A DNA stretch of 64,000 nucleotides from Escherichia coli O157:H7 (lineage in GTDB: Bacteria; Pseudomonadota; Gammaproteobacteria; Enterobacterales; Enterobacteriaceae): NCBI RefSeq assembly GCF_013167455.1, contig NZ_CP038328.1. One strand, given 5' to 3'. Position 1 is the first letter of the stretch. The number at the start of each line of letters is the position of its first letter. Positions 1-6,000 of the stretch are shown here, one piece after another. Position numbers: made by a program.

Positions 1-3000
1 GATGTCGATTAAACATTATGATGTTGTCAGGGCGGCGTCGCCGTCAGACCTTGCGGAAAAGCTGACACACAAACTGAAAGAGGGCTGGCAGCCGTTTGGT
101 AGTCCGGTGGCCATAACCCCTTATACCCTGATGCAGGCGATTACAGCAGAAGGTGATGTGGTGGTCAGTGGTGCAACTGAGCCGGATTGGTACTACGTCA
201 TCGTACTGGCCGGGCAGTCCAATGCCATGGCTTACGGTGAAGGGCTTCCGCTGCCGGATTCATACGATGCTCCGGATCCGCGCATTAAACAGCTGGCGCG
301 CCGCAGTACAGTGACGCCGGGTGGGGCTGCCTGCAGATATAACGATATTATTCCGGCCGACCACTGCCTGCATGATGTGCAGGATATGAGTACGCTGAAT
401 CATCCGAAGGCAGACCTGAGCAAAGGGCAGTACGGCTGTGTCGGCCAGGGGTTACATATTGCCAAAAAACTGCTCCCGTATATCCCGAATAACGCGGGGA
501 TCCTGCTGGTACCATGCTGTCGTGGTGGTTCGGCATTTACCCAGGGCGCGGAGGGGACATTCAGCGAGTCCACGGGGGCCAGCCAGGATTCGGCACGCTG
601 GGGGGTGGGCAAGCCGTTATATCAGGATCTGATTTCCCGCACAAAAGCGGCATTGCAGAAAAATCCCAAAAACGTTCTGCTGGCCGTCTGCTGGATGCAG
701 GGAGAGTTTGACATGAGCGCCGCCACCCACGCACAGCAACCTGCGCTGTTTACAGCCATGCTGGCACAGTTTCGTGCTGACCTCTCCGTGTTTAACGCGC
801 AGTGCCATGGTGGCAGTGCTGCAGATGTGCCGTGGATTTGTGGTGACACGACGTATTACTGGAAAAATACATACGCTACCCAGTACGACACCGTGTACGG
901 CGGGTATAAAAACAGGGAGAGTGAGGGCGTTTATTTTGTGCCCTTCATGACAGACGGTAACGGCGTCAATACCGCCACTAACGCGCCGGCAGAAGATCCG
1001 GATATTCCGGCATCAGGATATTACGGTGCGGCATCGAGAACGAATGGAAACCAGGTATCATCAAACCGCCCGACACATTTCAGTTCATGGGCGCGCAGGA
1101 GCATTATTCCGGATCGTCTGGCAACCGCTATTCTGAACGCAGCCGGGCGCACCTCAGCCTTCATCAGTGGTAAGGCACCGGAAATCAAACCCTCGCCCGG
1201 CGGCAACACGCCATCGGGTCCGTCTGCAGATACGTCCGTTCGCACAATCTCCCTGCTGCCGGCAGCCGGAGAGGCTGCTGCGCAGGGCTGGAGCATTAAG
1301 GATGGCGGAATTCAGTTGTCAGATGGTGTATTTAAGATCACCAGGCAGAGCAATAAAACCTGGTCCCTGACGCATCCGGTGGATGACGCAATTACCCTGC
1401 TGACACAGGGCGGCAGACTGACCTGTAAGTTCCGCCTGTCAGGCGCGCTGACCAACAATCAGTTCGGGCTGGGGATTTATCTGTATACGGATGCTCCCGT
1501 TCCTGATGGTGTGGCGATGACGGGTACCGGTAATCCGTTCCTGATGTCGTACTTTACTCAGACCACTGACGGCAGAGTGAATCTGATGCATCACAGGAAA
1601 GCCGGAAACACGAAGCTGGGGGAGTTCGGCGATTACGGTAACGACTGGCAGACGCTGGAGCTGGTGTTCACCGCCGGCAGTGCCACGGTTACTCCGAAAC
1701 TGAATGGAGTGGCTGGCCCGGCATTCCAGGTTATAAAAGACAGTCTGACACTGGGACTGAATGCGCTGACGCTGACGGATGTTACAAAAAATGCAGCGTA
1801 TGGCGTTGAGATAGAAAGTCTGGTGCTGGAGATAAATGCACCGGCAGCATAATAAAAAAAGAGCCAGCGACTGACCTGAAAGAAGACGCTGGCTAAAAGG
1901 CCTTATATGTTTGTAGAGACTTATTTTTCACAGACAGCAATGATGCCTGTCAATATATTATCAATATGCGGATTGTTTCAGTTACAGATGCTTTATTAAG
2001 GAAAAAAACAGCCAGCACTGACTTTCGGTGGAGAGGTGCTGGCTCAGAAGGATAGTTGGATTTCACATGATACTTATGCCTGGCGGTATATTTTCTGACA
2101 GACAGTGACGGGTGTTGTCAAGATATTGTGTCATTTATAACCTGAATCAGGGGGTGGCCGGAATGTTATCTGGCATTTTTAGCAGAGCCTGAATGCCATA
2201 ATCACGGCTCCCGGCGTTGGCCGTCAGTGGGTGACACTGGCGGCTTTTTTGTTTTTCTTTACTTTCATTTTCTGTCGGCGGTGACGGAGACATACATCAG
2301 ATGGAAAAAATCACAACGGGTGTGTCATACACCACGTCAGCGGTGGGGACGGGATACTGGTTACTGCAGCTGCTGGACAAAGTCTCTCCGTCCCAGTGGG
2401 TGGCGATAGGCGTGCTGGGGAGTCTGCTGTTTGGGCTGCTGACATATCTGACGAACCTGTATTTCAAGATTAAAGAAGACCGGCGTAAGGCGGCGCGGGG
2501 AGAGTAAAGTGATGAAGAAAAAATACGAACTGGTTGTTAAAGGGATAAATAATTACCCGGATAAGATTACTGTTACTGTGGCACCGGAAATTGGTGGGTA
2601 TCCGTCACTGTTGTTGCCAGATGTGGCGATTAGTCTTGACCGTACTGAAGGTGCCACGCTGGAGTTTTACGAAGCTGAGGCGAAAAAGCAGGCGAAGCAG
2701 TTTTTCATGGATGTTGCTGCCGGGTTATGTGAAGGGGATGGTCCGTTACCGGAAAAGCGTCCCGTAATTTTAGAGGCGCAGGATGTGTTGATAACCTACA
2801 GAGGAAAACTACCGGGAATAATTACGGGTTCTCTGAAGACTCCACCGCTGGCCTGAAGACTTAACATATCCAGGGATTTGAAATCGATAAACCCTGATAA
2901 ATATCCATGAACGCAAAAATCAGATACGGCCTGTCGGCTGCCGTTCTGGCGCTGATTGGTGCAGGGGCGTCTGCGCCTGAAATCCTCGACCAGTTTCTGG

Positions 3001-6000
3001 ATGAAAAGGAAGGTAACCACACCACAGCATACCGTGATGGTGCGGGTATCTGGACCATCTGCCGTGGAGCCACCCGGGGGGATGGTAAGCCTGTTATTCC
3101 TGGCATGAAGCTGTCGAAGGAAAAATGCGACCGGGTTAACGCCATTGAGCGTGATAAGGCGCTGGCATGGGTGGAGAAAAACATCAGAGTGCCGCTGACC
3201 GAACCCCAGAAAGCGGGGATCGCGTCATTCTGTCCGTACAACATTGGCCCCGGTAAGTGTTTCCCGTCGACGTTTTACAGACGGATTAATGCAGGAGATC
3301 GAAAAGGTGCCTGCGAAGCGATTCGCTGGTGGATTAAGGACGGTGGCAGGGACTGCCGTATTCGCTCAAATAACTGTTACGGTCAGGTATCCCGTCGTGA
3401 CCAGGAGAGCGCGCTGGCGTGCTGGGGAATCGACAGATAAGCAGAATATTTTGCTGAAAAATGAGGTTTGCTTACATGGACGGATAACACGAAATCCTGC
3501 AAATTGGCAAAATGTAAGTGAATAAAGTCAAAGCAGTTGTTTAACACTCAGGCACCGTAATGATGCCTTTGTCATTTCTGCGCATCTCACGCGCATCTCA
3601 CAACACAGAACCTTTCAGGATGACCCTTGAGGATACCGGTTTGGCTGTCGGTGCCTTTCTGTGGGCTGGATTCCTGTGAGACAAGGTTCATCACTAAAAG
3701 GAAATAACCGATGAATATGATGGCCGTGCCGTTTCACGGCAACTCTCTTTATGTAGTTAACCATAATGGCGAACCATACGTTCCCATGAAACCTGTCGTT
3801 GCGGGGATGGGGCTGGCCTGGCAATCACAGTTGGCTAAGTTAAGACAGCGTTTTGCGTCAACTATAACGGAAATCGTTATGGTTGCTGAGGATGGGAAAC
3901 AACGCAATATGGTGTCCATGCCACTTCGAAAACTTGCCGGCTGGCTACAAACCATTAATCCCAACAAAGTAAAACCCGAAATCCGCGATAAGGTCATCCG
4001 GTATCAGGAAGAGTGCGACGATGTTCTTTACGAGTACTGGACGAAGGGTTTTGTCGTTAATCCCCGTAAAATGAGCGTGATGGAAGAACTCAACCAGGCT
4101 TGTGCTGACATGAAACGGGATAAAAACATTGCCAGTGTGTTTGCTACCGGGCTGAATGAGTGGAAACAGGTTAAAGCCGCGCATGTATCAAAAATCCGTA
4201 CGCTGGTAAATGAAGCGAATATGCTGATTGATTTTGTCCTGGCTGATACAGGCAAAGGGAAAATAACAAAGGCGGATTGATGGGGTGGCTAATGATATCA
4301 GATAAACTCATAACGCTGGTGAAGAGCCTCTGTGTACTTGCCGGCATTTCATTTTCACTAATGCTGGTTGCTCTTTTTCTTTCCATGGCCTGGATGGCGT
4401 TGACTTCGGCAGGGCTGGTGGGGTGAGCATAAACCGAATGCTTTCCGCGTTTACCGTTATTCTGCTGGTGGTCTGTGGTGCGCTTAGTCTGGGGCTGAAT
4501 CATTACCGCGATAACGCCATAACCTACAAAGAGCAGCGCGATAAAAAAGTCAGTGAGCTGGAGCTGGCAAATGCAACCATTACTGATATGCAGCAGCGCC
4601 AGCGTGATGTTGCTGCACTTGATGCCAGATACTCGAGGGAATTAGCTGATGCGAGAGCTGAAAATGAAACTCTGCGTGCTGATGTTGCCGCTGGTCGTAA
4701 GCGCCTGCGCATCAACGCCAACTGTCCAGGCTCCTTGCGTAAAGCCCCCATCACCTCCGGCGTGGATAATGCAACCGGTCCCCGACTGGCAGAAGCCGCT
4801 GAACGGGATTATTTCATCCTCAGAGAACGGCTGATGGCAATGCAGAAGCAACTGGAAGGAGCACAGGAATATATCCGTACCCAGTGTATACCGTGATGTT
4901 TTGTTACGAAGGTGTTACTGGTAACGTTAAGGTAATTTAACAAAGAGTCAGTTCCGGACTTTATAGTGTGCTCAGTTCATGGCCAAAAACGATTTCTGTG
5001 ATAAATATTTTGAATATTATTTACAGGTAAATGGAGTGGGGCACATGGATAGAAATATTACAATAGAGTATGAAGTATATGCCCGTATTGTATGGGCAGA
5101 GAAGGCAAAAACATGGTAATTCCGTGTGTTGCCATGATACCTGATTGGCAGAATTGTTGTTTGGTTTTGAGTATATAGTCAGCGTCTTTTGTTCGGTAAT
5201 TGCTCTTTCAATTAAAATGCCAGATATGATTTGCTTTTCTTTGTTGTTTAGTTTTTTTGTATATTATTTTTATTGTTTTTATATAATTAGTTTTTTATTG
5301 TTGTCTTATTAAGGACGGTAAATTCAGGATGGCAGTCTGTAGATAAACGGAGGTTACTTATGCTACATGATCACCTGGCAGAATGTCTGGAGAAAAAAGG
5401 ACTGTACCGGAGAGCAGCTGAACGATGGGCAAAAGTGATGGTACAGCTAAGTGATGACCAGAAAAGAAAAGTGGCGGCACAGAAACGAGCAGAGTGTTTG
5501 CGTAAGGCGCGCCGGACTCCGGTTTCACCGGTGAACCTGACCGAAATAAAACAAGCGGTCAACAGACTACATTCTGAGTTGGGAATGGGATTTGAAGAGC
5601 GGCGGGTATTCCGACGATATAAAGGGACAGGAGAACAGAATACGTCCGGAAACGCGCGGTCAAAAAAATGCTAAAAAATATCTGAGAGCGTTATTGCCTG
5701 TTACCATAAGAAAAAGCGACTTTAGTGGTCGCTTTTTGTGTCATATATAAGTCGTTTAAGTAAACCTGTCTGAACAGGTTCTCTGGTCGTGTTTGTCTTT
5801 GTTGGGTACAAATTGAGAATATTTTTCATTAATTAATCTTCTTCTGCAGGCTTCAATAACCCACGCTGAAAAATTTCCTGAACCTTTCAGATCAAGAGCG
5901 ATGTTAATTTGTTCAATCATCTGGTTTGGAAATCGGATGTTGCGGGTTGTTGTTCTGCGGGTTCTGTTCTTTGATGACATAATGTTGCCCCATATTCAGT

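Follow-up and report, generated by a model that had tools for sequence, protein, structure and literature searches.

The nanS-p and lysis gene block of a lambdoid, very probably non-Stx prophage of Escherichia coli O157:H7

In phages carrying the Shiga toxin (Stx) genes, the stx operon is followed by an esterase gene and a lysis cassette with an antirepressor gene. In 933W, a short-tailed phage, the order is Q, the tRNA genes ileZ/argN/argO, stx2AB, the esterase gene, an orf, S, R, ant and Rz/Rz1; in the Stx1a phage YYZ-2008, it is Q, stx1A, stx1B, the esterase gene, S, ydfR, R, ant and Rz. The mechanistic archetype of such lysis cassettes is phage 21, with the S21 pinholin, the R21 signal-arrest-release (SAR) endolysin and the Rz/Rz1 spanins. 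The holin S of 933W has been classed as a pinholin through its similarity to H-19B and P21 (PMC10462455), and the pairing of a pinholin with a SAR endolysin is predicted for about 99% of Stx-type lysis cassettes (PMC8136144). As regards the esterase, i.e., NanS-p, activity has been demonstrated for EDL933 alleles according to a review (PMC8065619), and non-Stx prophages also carry nanS-p alleles, EDL933 possessing seven or more active ones (PMC10462455, PMC8065619).

The DNA considered here, hereafter the window, is the whole stretch of 64,000 nucleotides from E. coli O157:H7 that was analysed. Its positions 2-4896 carry on the + strand, in order, genes for a NanS-p-type esterase, a P21-family holin, YdfR/DUF1327, an R21-like SAR lysozyme, Ant, a 49-aa membrane ORF, and Rz with embedded Rz1. 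With a probability of about 0.92, this block forms the promoter-distal start of a late operon belonging to a lambdoid, non-Stx prophage of the E. coli O157:H7 lineage, with an Sp11-type backbone at the Sp10 chromosomal site. The features are as follows.

1-29969, + strand: lambdoid prophage part inside the window, comprising late, lysis, lambda-like packaging, head and tail genes, J, lom, tail-fibre genes, three nleG and a right end adjoining uspF
2-1852, + strand: nanS-p-type prophage sialate O-acetylesterase, 616 aa (ORF; Pfam DUF1737, SASA and DUF6645)
2219-2255, + strand: terminator-like G+C hairpin with T run in the esterase-S spacer (consensus scan match only)
2301-2507, + strand: holin S, 68 aa, P21 holin S family (pinholin type), single ATG start (PHROG holin)
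2509-2856, + strand: ydfR (DUF1327), between S and R (ORF; PHROG of unknown function; YdfR family annotation in relatives)
2907-3440, + strand: endolysin R, 177 aa, lysozyme with an N-terminal signal-arrest-release-like segment (PHROG endolysin)
3711-4280, + strand: ant, antirepressor-like (P22_AR_N and ORF11CD3), 189 aa (PHROG anti-repressor Ant)
4277-4426, + strand: very hydrophobic 49-aa ORF between ant and Rz (ORF; phrog_4906, unknown function; hydropathy)
4423-4896, + strand: Rz i-spanin with an N-terminal transmembrane domain (TMD), starting at GTG 4423 or, as annotated in relatives, ATG 4438 (PHROG Rz-like spanin, E 2e-73)
4649-4834, + strand: Rz1 o-spanin, 61 aa, inside Rz in another frame (PHROG Rz-like spanin)
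5360-5674, + strand: pchB, PerC-family LEE activator, directly 3' of the lysis cassette (104/104 aa identical to Sakai ECs_2182, annotated pchB)

The esterase exhibits the domain composition of NanS-p, namely DUF1737 (residues 4-50), SASA (66-262) and DUF6645 (467-577), together with a GQSN motif read from the sequence at residues 71-74, and is 100% identical to WP_000023202.1 of NCCP 13914. Its gene runs to 1852, with S beginning at 2301, which is the position of NanS-p in a lambdoid late region, just upstream of S, and is also found in Sakai Sp10 and Sp11, YYZ-2008 and 933W. In the spacer, the hairpin matched by the consensus scan comprises 11 pairs, seven of them G-C, and lies 46 nt 5' of the S start codon; it is possibly a site for read-through by Q-modified polymerase, a putative function.

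Considering the holin, PF04971 is on record for the corresponding genes of related loci, which places it in the P21 holin S family. In a crude hydropathy scan, a single stretch stands above threshold, namely a strongly hydrophobic TMD around residues 33-55, preceded by a G/S/T-rich, weakly hydrophobic N-terminal segment under threshold, in keeping with the two-segment layout of pinholins. No dual start, by which S21 is made in holin and antiholin forms, is present in the window, where ATA stands in frame three codons before the ATG, as in YYZ-2008/H-19B, versus ATG in 933W and Sakai Sp10; this feature of S21 is characteristic of pinholins rather than strictly defining.

Residues 9-174 of the endolysin align with the structures 3HDE (phage 21 lysozyme; E 5.5e-18, N-terminal segment included) and 4ZPU (RrrD), the 177-aa lysozyme counterparts in related loci are recorded with PF00959, and the catalytic motif E35-x8-D44-x5-T50 of SAR-endolysin lysozymes reads EGNHTTAYRDGAGIWT at residues 35-50. 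Upstream of it, residues 8-24, YGLSAAVLALIGAGASA, are weakly hydrophobic and Gly/Ala-rich (maximum mean hydropathy 1.69), and the surrounding 31-residue N-terminal stretch contains 39% G/A/S/T, a composition suggestive of a SAR segment. The pinholin and SAR-endolysin labels given by the sequence-only reading thus appear apt, fitting both these features and the allele classes of the literature (PMC10462455, PMC8136144).

The Pfam matches of Ant are those on record for the corresponding genes of related loci. RefSeq annotation of relatives gives the 49-aa ORF as a hypothetical protein of 48 aa; its conservation in 933W and YYZ-2008 is 80%. Rz exhibits a TMD at about residues 6-24 (hydropathy scan), while the Rz1 embedded in another of its frames has a VSAC lipobox at residues 17-20 and a Pro-rich mature part (9 of 41 residues), i.e., the makeup of a two-component spanin. 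As such, every gene named by the sequence-only reading (esterase, pinholin, SAR endolysin, ant and Rz/Rz1) was found where it had been placed, on the + strand and intact by ORF calls; ydfR and the 49-aa ORF had been missed. Also, pchB lies beyond the interval covered by that reading, yet in the same Sp11-type block.

By analogy with phage 21, lambda and NanS-p, induction would be followed by the passage of Q-modified RNA polymerase, coming from pR' outside the window, through terminators, possibly including the spacer hairpin, so as to transcribe the whole block. The esterase would then build up in the cell until released on lysis, and, once freed, would strip 9-O-acetyl groups off mucin sialic acids, thereby providing a carbon source for the bacterial population. 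Lysis itself would proceed as in the archetype: (i) the pinholin would gather in the inner membrane until, at a fixed moment, it formed small holes collapsing the membrane potential, (ii) the endolysin, exported beforehand by Sec and tethered to the membrane in inactive form through its N-terminal SAR segment, would upon depolarisation be released, refold and degrade the cell wall, and (iii) the Rz/Rz1 spanin complex would last disrupt the outer membrane.

Whether toxin genes precede this block bears on a slot lying 5' of window position 1, so the upstream region was read in proxies, namely NCCP 13914, ECP19-598, Sakai Sp10 and Sp11, 10 places with the exact esterase and nine with the exact terminase. 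In annotated O157 prophages, the block lies downstream of the Q antiterminator and the ileZ/argN/argO tRNA genes, and the order Q, tRNAs, TerB, DUF3927 and esterase was read in relatives including NCCP 13914 and ECP19-598. Among 27 related non-Stx loci reaching upstream of the esterase (one of them not read gene by gene), 24 have TerB (tciA), as a rule followed by DUF3927 (tciB), in the slot that separates Q/tRNAs from the esterase, two have a DNA methyltransferase there and none has stx. TerB is directly upstream at all 10 exact-esterase places and at eight of the nine exact-terminase places reaching that far, the ninth (L026) having the DNA methyltransferase. The first 8 nt of the window, GATGTCGA, recur at 22 loci, with TerB upstream at 21 of them; the other one (L027), not read gene by gene, is without stx by tblastn. 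The alternative start AATGACAT is found in the Stx1 phage YYZ-2008 and at both methyltransferase loci. No stx was detected by tblastn in the 24 proxy loci tested, and a tblastn search of the whole 64-kb window with Stx1A/B and Stx2A/B returned chance matches only (best E 0.49). On both sides, the slot is bordered by sequence conserved with 933W, namely a 92% identical tRNA block and some 120 nt following stxB, so that the cargo slot taken up by TerB/DUF3927 is the one that houses stxAB. Across 5,426 complete E. coli genomes, a TerB-esterase junction is found in 647 and a stx1B-esterase junction in 39.

The sequence-only reading had proposed a possible Stx-converting phage backbone, to be given up should the upstream sequence lack stx. 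In such a prophage, stxAB would sit just 5' of window position 1 and separate Q/tRNAs from the esterase, the arrangement of YYZ-2008/H-19B. The gene order is indeed shared, DNA identity to Stx1a phages reaches 96-97% over 5 kb, the window begins exactly at the esterase with the slot out of view, and the existence of Stx1a phages with a 95%-identical lambda-like structural/morphogenesis module indicates that this type of backbone is able to carry stx. Against this, TerB/DUF3927 fills the slot at every locus read with a minimum of 99.5% identity; identity to the best Stx phage is just 96.7%, in an alignment beginning at position 9 because the first esterase codons differ between YYZ-2008/H-19B and the window (MTFK vs. 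MSIK); the Rz/Rz1 allele has 76-78% protein identity to those of Stx phages (for Rz, 76% to 933W and 78% to YYZ-2008), being identical to that of non-Stx O157 prophages (for Rz, 100% to NCCP 13914 and ECP19-598); pchB and a lambda-like terminase follow Rz as in Sp11, unlike in YYZ-2008 or 933W; and, on the chromosome, the prophage sits where Sakai has Sp10, a prophage without stx. A Stx-converting source prophage is thus extremely improbable. With TerB/DUF3927 or a methyltransferase and no stx in the slot of the relatives, the Stx-converting reading is therefore not supported, the closest loci being non-Stx, and the upstream sequence lacks stx in every proxy read, which amounts to refutation by proxy rather than direct. 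Judging from these relatives, for a slot located outside the window, the prophage is almost certainly not toxin-carrying. The accompanying caveat, that non-Stx prophages commonly share the module, was well founded.

At 99.5-100% identity, the block is matched most closely by non-Stx prophages from the O157:H7 lineage. Window 1-5000 has 100% DNA identity to NCCP 13914, an O157-lineage chromosome; ERL05-0623 shows eight mismatches in 18,812 nt; and ECP19-598 is collinear with window 1-37000 at 99.5% identity. The window is homologous to the right ends of Sp11 and of the Qin-site prophage as far as 29969, and the right flank, uspF/ompN/nifJ, is the Sakai Sp10 chromosomal site. No complete genome of the collection matches the entire window, which is a mosaic: positions 1-4 kb are identical to a prophage adjoining ydfJ and rspA, presumably, from what is known of K-12, the prophage Qin site, and 26-64 kb are identical to FRIK1989 (99.995% over 26282-64000, with collinearity from 5838 onward). 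The upstream arrangement of the source strain could therefore differ from every proxy.

One such arrangement would be a non-Stx prophage with other upstream cargo, i.e., the DNA methyltransferase and tRNA-Met gene found in the slot of FRIK1989, whose genome is the nearest one for the right-hand 38 kb; the same cargo occurs at the exact-terminase place L026. The lysis cassette of FRIK1989 is clearly different, however, lacking ant, with holin, ydfR and R DNA segments about 91-93% identical and an esterase match from position 9 only, and both methyltransferase loci start with AATGACAT where the window has GATGTCGA, so that this cargo is very unlikely.

A further possibility concerns function and is compatible with a non-Stx Sp11-type prophage, namely that the cassette is intact but belongs to a defective resident that rarely or never lyses. 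The prophage may be non-inducible, given that the early regions of close relatives contain pseudogenes: in NCCP 13914 the integrase gene is frameshifted and truncated and the DUF1627 gene frameshifted, and in ECP19-598 the replication gene is frameshifted with an internal stop. The window, besides, combines alleles of two prophage sites, as expected for exchange between resident prophages. On the other side, every lysis gene of the window, as well as each packaging, head and tail gene that was checked there, is full length. The early region of the source prophage lies outside the window, and a defective state is considered possible but somewhat unlikely. If true, the prophage would matter mainly for supplying NanS-p, PchB and NleG effectors, and as a recombination substrate for lambdoid prophages.

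Returning to the non-Stx prophage reading and the described systems, the holin belongs to the same Pfam family as that of phage 21, and the endolysin is a distant relative of R21, not a near-identical one, aligned with its structure across the SAR segment and sharing the E-x8-D-x5-T motif; compared with phage 21, the cassette has Ant, ydfR and the 49-aa ORF inserted and lacks the ATG dual start of the holin. The order of the block as it stands downstream of stx in Stx phages, as the sequence-only reading had stated, holds for both YYZ-2008 and 933W. The likeness to 933W is high for Ant (100%), R (96.6%) and S (95.6%) but low for the esterase (53%) and Rz, and 933W differs in lacking ydfR, in an extra ORF before S, and in having bor and different terminase genes after Rz in place of pchB and lambda Nu1/A; the annotation of its terminase and portal genes is different, and they gave no tBLASTN match to those of the window. 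The label "933W-type" was thus imprecise.

The Stx1a phages YYZ-2008/H-19B come nearer, sharing the order esterase, S, ydfR, R, ant and Rz, with R, Ant and YdfR 100% identical in YYZ-2008, S 98.5% and the esterase 98.4%. At the level of sequence, the window module and Stx-phage late modules are homologous and not alike by chance, because DNA identity to YYZ-2008 is 96.7% over 98% of 5 kb. These phages nevertheless differ from the window by stx1AB directly upstream of the esterase, a different Q and different packaging and head genes.

Sakai Sp10 shares the right-hand chromosomal neighbourhood and the order esterase, holin, ydfR, endolysin, ant and Rz, with Q, tRNAs and a TerB-like gene, and no stx, preceding the esterase; it is unlike the window in the HNH and Terminase_2-type packaging genes after Rz, in the ATG dual start of its holin, and in a DNA identity of only 95-97%. 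Sakai Sp11 (ECs_2182-ECs_2190 block) has an identical order: esterase, holin, ydfR, endolysin, antirepressor, small ORF and Rz/Rz1 are followed, as in the window, by pchB, the lambda-like terminase and onward to J, lom, tail fibre and three nleG, with 97.96% DNA identity over window 1-25001 and the same PchB. Upstream of its esterase stand a TerB-like gene and then a small ORF, with no stx in Sp11. It differs in its location, at the ydfJ (Qin) site, whereas the prophage of the window ends beside uspF/ompN, and in allelic differences, chiefly in the J and tail-fibre region. As such, the module is an ordinary late-gene block of a well-known lambda-like O157:H7 prophage, the biology of which is already known.

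The interval 2-4896 of the window is, as judged from its sequence and from related loci, very probably the late region of a non-Stx Sp11/Sp10-type prophage of E. coli O157:H7, a kind already known. In the ORF listing, it forms a compact series of intact genes, all on the plus strand, with the following features:

2-1852, +, esterase, 616 aa (Pfam DUF1737, SASA and DUF6645)
1853-2300, esterase-S spacer of about 450 nt, between the esterase and the holin gene S
2219-2245, strong terminator-like hairpin at the end of this spacer, directly upstream of S
2301-2507, +, holin (S), 68 aa (PHROG holin families; PF04971 recorded for the corresponding genes of related loci)
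2509-2856, +, ydfR/DUF1327 (ORF)
2907-3440, +, lysozyme (endolysin R), 177 aa (ORF; catalytic motif and N-terminal segment)
3711-4280, +, Ant-like protein, 189 aa (ORF)
4277-4426, +, very hydrophobic protein, 49 aa (ORF; PHROG without assigned function)
4423 or 4438 to 4896, +, Rz (PHROG)
4649-4834, +, Rz1, nested inside Rz in another frame (ORF)

All genes named in the sequence-only reading were found where it had placed them, and its observation is thus confirmed, though the gene set it gave was incomplete, omitting ydfR and the 49-aa ORF. Every protein of the cassette is nearly identical to some annotated protein. ORFs on the minus strand over the esterase and R were rejected as spurious, because the plus-strand genes match their families strongly and RefSeq relatives annotate none there. 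NCBIfam provided nothing useful, its matches being confined to an endolysin family below threshold and, for the neighbouring gene, YlcI/YnfO. In window 1-7000, Rfam returned at E up to 0.1 a single match, to a plant microRNA family (28.7 bits, the gathering score being 90), which was taken as chance.

Respective to the lysis proteins, the labels of pinholin and SAR endolysin given from sequence alone are upheld as far as motifs, hydropathy and alignments can tell. The lysozyme presents the motif E-x8-D-x5-T at residues 35-50 and a Gly/Ala-rich, weakly hydrophobic N-terminal segment aligning with that of the phage 21 lysozyme structure 3HDE. The holin exhibits a single strongly hydrophobic segment together with a weakly hydrophobic, G/S/T-rich N-terminal segment, and is 95.6% identical to S of the Stx2a phage 933W, which the literature assigns to the P21 holin S family as a pinholin (PMC10462455); the pairing of a pinholin with a SAR endolysin is predicted in about 99% of Stx phages (PMC8136144). 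While 933W and the Sakai prophage Sp10 have an ATG three in-frame positions before the holin start codon, i.e., an M-Y-Q-M dual start, the corresponding codon in the window (2292-2303) is ATA, as it is in O157 relatives and the Stx1a phage YYZ-2008. The 68-aa form alone is expected from the window, although some gene callers nevertheless give a holin of 71 aa. In Rz1, the lipobox reads VSAC and the mature part is rich in proline. The Ant protein is 100% identical in the window, YYZ-2008 and 933W, whereas Rz next to it reaches only 76-78% identity with its counterparts in these two phages and the 49-aa ORF, unannotated in both, is conserved at 80% at the protein level; a mosaic joint can therefore be placed directly 3' of ant (within window 3711-4896).

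The spacer at 1853-2300, for which Rfam gave no match, contains two similar hairpin-forming units about 148 nt apart, each opening with an A run followed by GCCAGC, as well as a second pair of partial repeats. A promoter scan of the cassette returned six promoter-like sites against 8.3 expected from shuffled sequence, and this lack of excess fits transcription from a late promoter further upstream. Going by what is well established for lambda, phage 21 and NanS-p, the cassette, which contains no convincing promoter and in relatives lies downstream of Q and tRNA genes, would be transcribed upon induction by Q-modified polymerase passing terminators, from the esterase through S, ydfR, R, ant and the small ORF to Rz/Rz1. 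The pinholin would then, at a set time, depolarise the inner membrane, which would free the membrane-tethered SAR endolysin to degrade the cell wall, the spanins breaching the outer membrane last. Once set free by lysis, the esterase would strip O-acetyl groups from mucin sialic acids, making them usable by the population (PMC8065619). The prophage as a whole may be defective; in close relatives, frameshifts are present in the integrase and replication genes, the early region lying outside the window.

The sequence-only reading had proposed a possible Stx-converting backbone. In Stx phages, stxAB occupies the slot between the Q/tRNA genes and the esterase; since the window begins at the esterase start codon, this slot is not directly readable and related loci served as proxies. 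In all proxies read, it was filled by something other than stx. In NCCP 13914, the order is Q (PF06323 type), three tRNA genes, TerB, DUF3927 and the esterase, an arrangement shared by 7.1_Anguil; in ECP19-598, it is a DUF1133-type Q, a helix-turn-helix gene, two tRNA genes, TerB, DUF3927 and the esterase; and the non-Stx Sakai prophages Sp10 and Sp11 have TerB-like genes in the slot. Reading 24 contigs, TerB was found directly upstream in all ten non-redundant places encoding the exact 616-aa esterase. Among places encoding the exact large terminase subunit and reaching upstream of the esterase, it was TerB in eight of nine and a DNA methyltransferase in the other. With the Stx1 and Stx2 subunits as queries, tblastn found no match up to E 1e-3 in any of the 24 proxy loci searched; within the window, it gave chance matches alone (best E 0.49).

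Both flanks of the slot are conserved with 933W, i.e., the tRNA block on the left (92% identical) and about 120 nt just after stxB on the right, and it is on this ground that stxAB and TerB/DUF3927 are considered to share one cargo slot, with stx2AB of 933W replaced in relatives by TerB/DUF3927 (19095-19687 in locus L001 and 11093-11688 in locus L004). Among collected phages, the non-Stx phages JLK-2012, 434 and PPyecE have the junction of TerB/DUF3927 with the esterase, there annotated tciA/tciB, and Stx phages match just its short conserved flank. The first 8 nt of the window, GATGTCGA (MSIK...), recur at 22 loci, where TerB was seen upstream at the 21 inspected for it and the remaining one (L027) had no stx by tblastn. 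While this variant was seen in non-Stx loci only and YYZ-2008 starts its esterase with AATGACAT (MTFK...), the latter also occurs in some non-Stx loci and the first 8 nt are thus weakly diagnostic. Base rates point the same way: for this esterase type, 647 of 5,426 complete E. coli genomes have the TerB-esterase junction and 39 the stx1B-esterase junction, the former being about 17 times commoner.

This type of backbone is able to carry stx, since Stx1a phages exist whose lambda-like structural module shares 95% identity with that of the window. Against the source prophage itself carrying stx in its slot stand the proxies, where stx was in none and TerB/DUF3927 was usual, and such a case appears very improbable. 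In O157:H7, stx copies are expected in prophages at sites of the wrbA, yehV, sbcB or argW type, and not at this one. Two further ideas, together also very improbable and neither supported by the evidence, are that stx or other undescribed cargo fills the slot of this Sp11-type prophage at the Sp10 site and, separately, that the late-expressed Ant protein might act with the 49-aa ORF to link lysis by one prophage with the de-repression of others resident in the cell, Stx prophages included. If true, stx at this site would constitute a new combination of Stx phage and integration site, arising via recombination between resident prophages. With stx absent upstream in all proxies and Sp11-type genes after Rz, the suggestion of a Stx-converting phage is not retained; the answer lies rather in the accompanying caveat that non-Stx prophages share the module, and the original interpretation is as such partly supported.

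The late region of a non-Stx prophage is also what the closest relatives indicate, the best matches being chromosomal prophages of the O157:H7 lineage and not Stx phages. The NCCP 13914 prophage is 100% identical over window 1-5000 (97.96% over 25 kb), dozens of O157:H7 chromosomes reach 99.4-99.9% over window 1-5000, ERL05-0623 presents eight differences across 18.8 kb, and ECP19-598 is collinear at 99.5% over window 1-37000. The right end of the prophage lies at about 29,969 and is followed by uspF, ompN, nifJ, hslJ, ldhA and ydbH; in Sakai, the uspF/ompN/nifJ neighbourhood is the site of Sp10. At this right end, a low-GC stretch (0.386) contains three DUF1076 (NleG-family effector) genes (about 27815-29815, +); their coordinates were carried over from ECP19-598, between which and the window there is no difference over 24-34 kb. 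Window 1-4 kb is identical to the NCCP 13914 prophage adjoining ydfJ and rspA, at what we take, from K-12, to be the Qin site, and is separated by about 54 differences from the ECP19-598 prophage at the Sp10 site; conversely, window 5-14 kb is identical to ECP19-598 and differs from NCCP 13914 at merely nine positions. From 26.3 to 64 kb, the window differs from FRIK1989 by one mismatch and one gap (99.995% identity), although the lysis cassette of FRIK1989 is unlike that of the window, lacking ant and having a methyltransferase and a tRNA upstream. In a chromosomal gene of the window, tandem repeats offset by 57 nt occur internally at about 42100-42312; this gene is annotated in FRIK1989 as a 2.9-kb proline-rich domain protein and adjoins an autotransporter gene. 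No complete E. coli genome in the collection matched the whole window. By these allele comparisons, the window combines alleles of two paralogous prophage sites of O157 into a mosaic, with a Qin-site allele at 1-4 kb and an Sp10-site flank at 30 kb, which suggests that resident prophages underwent inversion or gene conversion with each other.

Right after Rz, a PerC-family protein (5360-5674, +) is identical at 104 of 104 aa to Sakai PchB (ECs_2182), which belongs to the prophage-encoded proteins that activate the LEE type III secretion island (PMC6265319). The esterase-S-R-ant-Rz block is no marker for a Shiga toxin phage; it brings accessory genes relevant to O157, namely NanS-p, which supports growth on the sialic acids of mucin, and PchB, which activates the LEE, as already described. 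Its near-identity to the late regions of Stx phages makes it a recombination substrate with them, as also already described.

Compared with known phages, the cassette does have the arrangement of Stx phages, as had been proposed: YYZ-2008 reads Q, stx1A, stx1B, small ORF, esterase, S, ydfR, R, ant and Rz (96.7% DNA identity over 98% of 5 kb), and 933W reads Q, pR', ileZ/argN/argO, stx2A, stx2B, esterase, ORF, S, R, ant, Rz/Rz1 and bor. "933W-type" is nevertheless not the best label, for 933W has an esterase of only 53% protein identity, an Rz of 76% identity, no ydfR and other genes 3' of Rz. The Stx1a group (YYZ-2008, H-19B) is much closer, with 98.4% for the esterase and 100% for R, Ant and YdfR. 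Unlike in YYZ-2008 or 933W, the Rz/Rz1 allele and the pchB and lambda-type terminase genes after Rz are of Sp11 type. Sakai Sp11 comprises a TerB-like gene, a small ORF, the esterase ECs_2189, holin, ECs_2187, endolysin, antirepressor, a small ORF, Rz/Rz1, pchB and a lambda-like terminase, and continues via J, lom and the tail fibre to three nleG genes, an organisation the window shares (97.96% over 25 kb).
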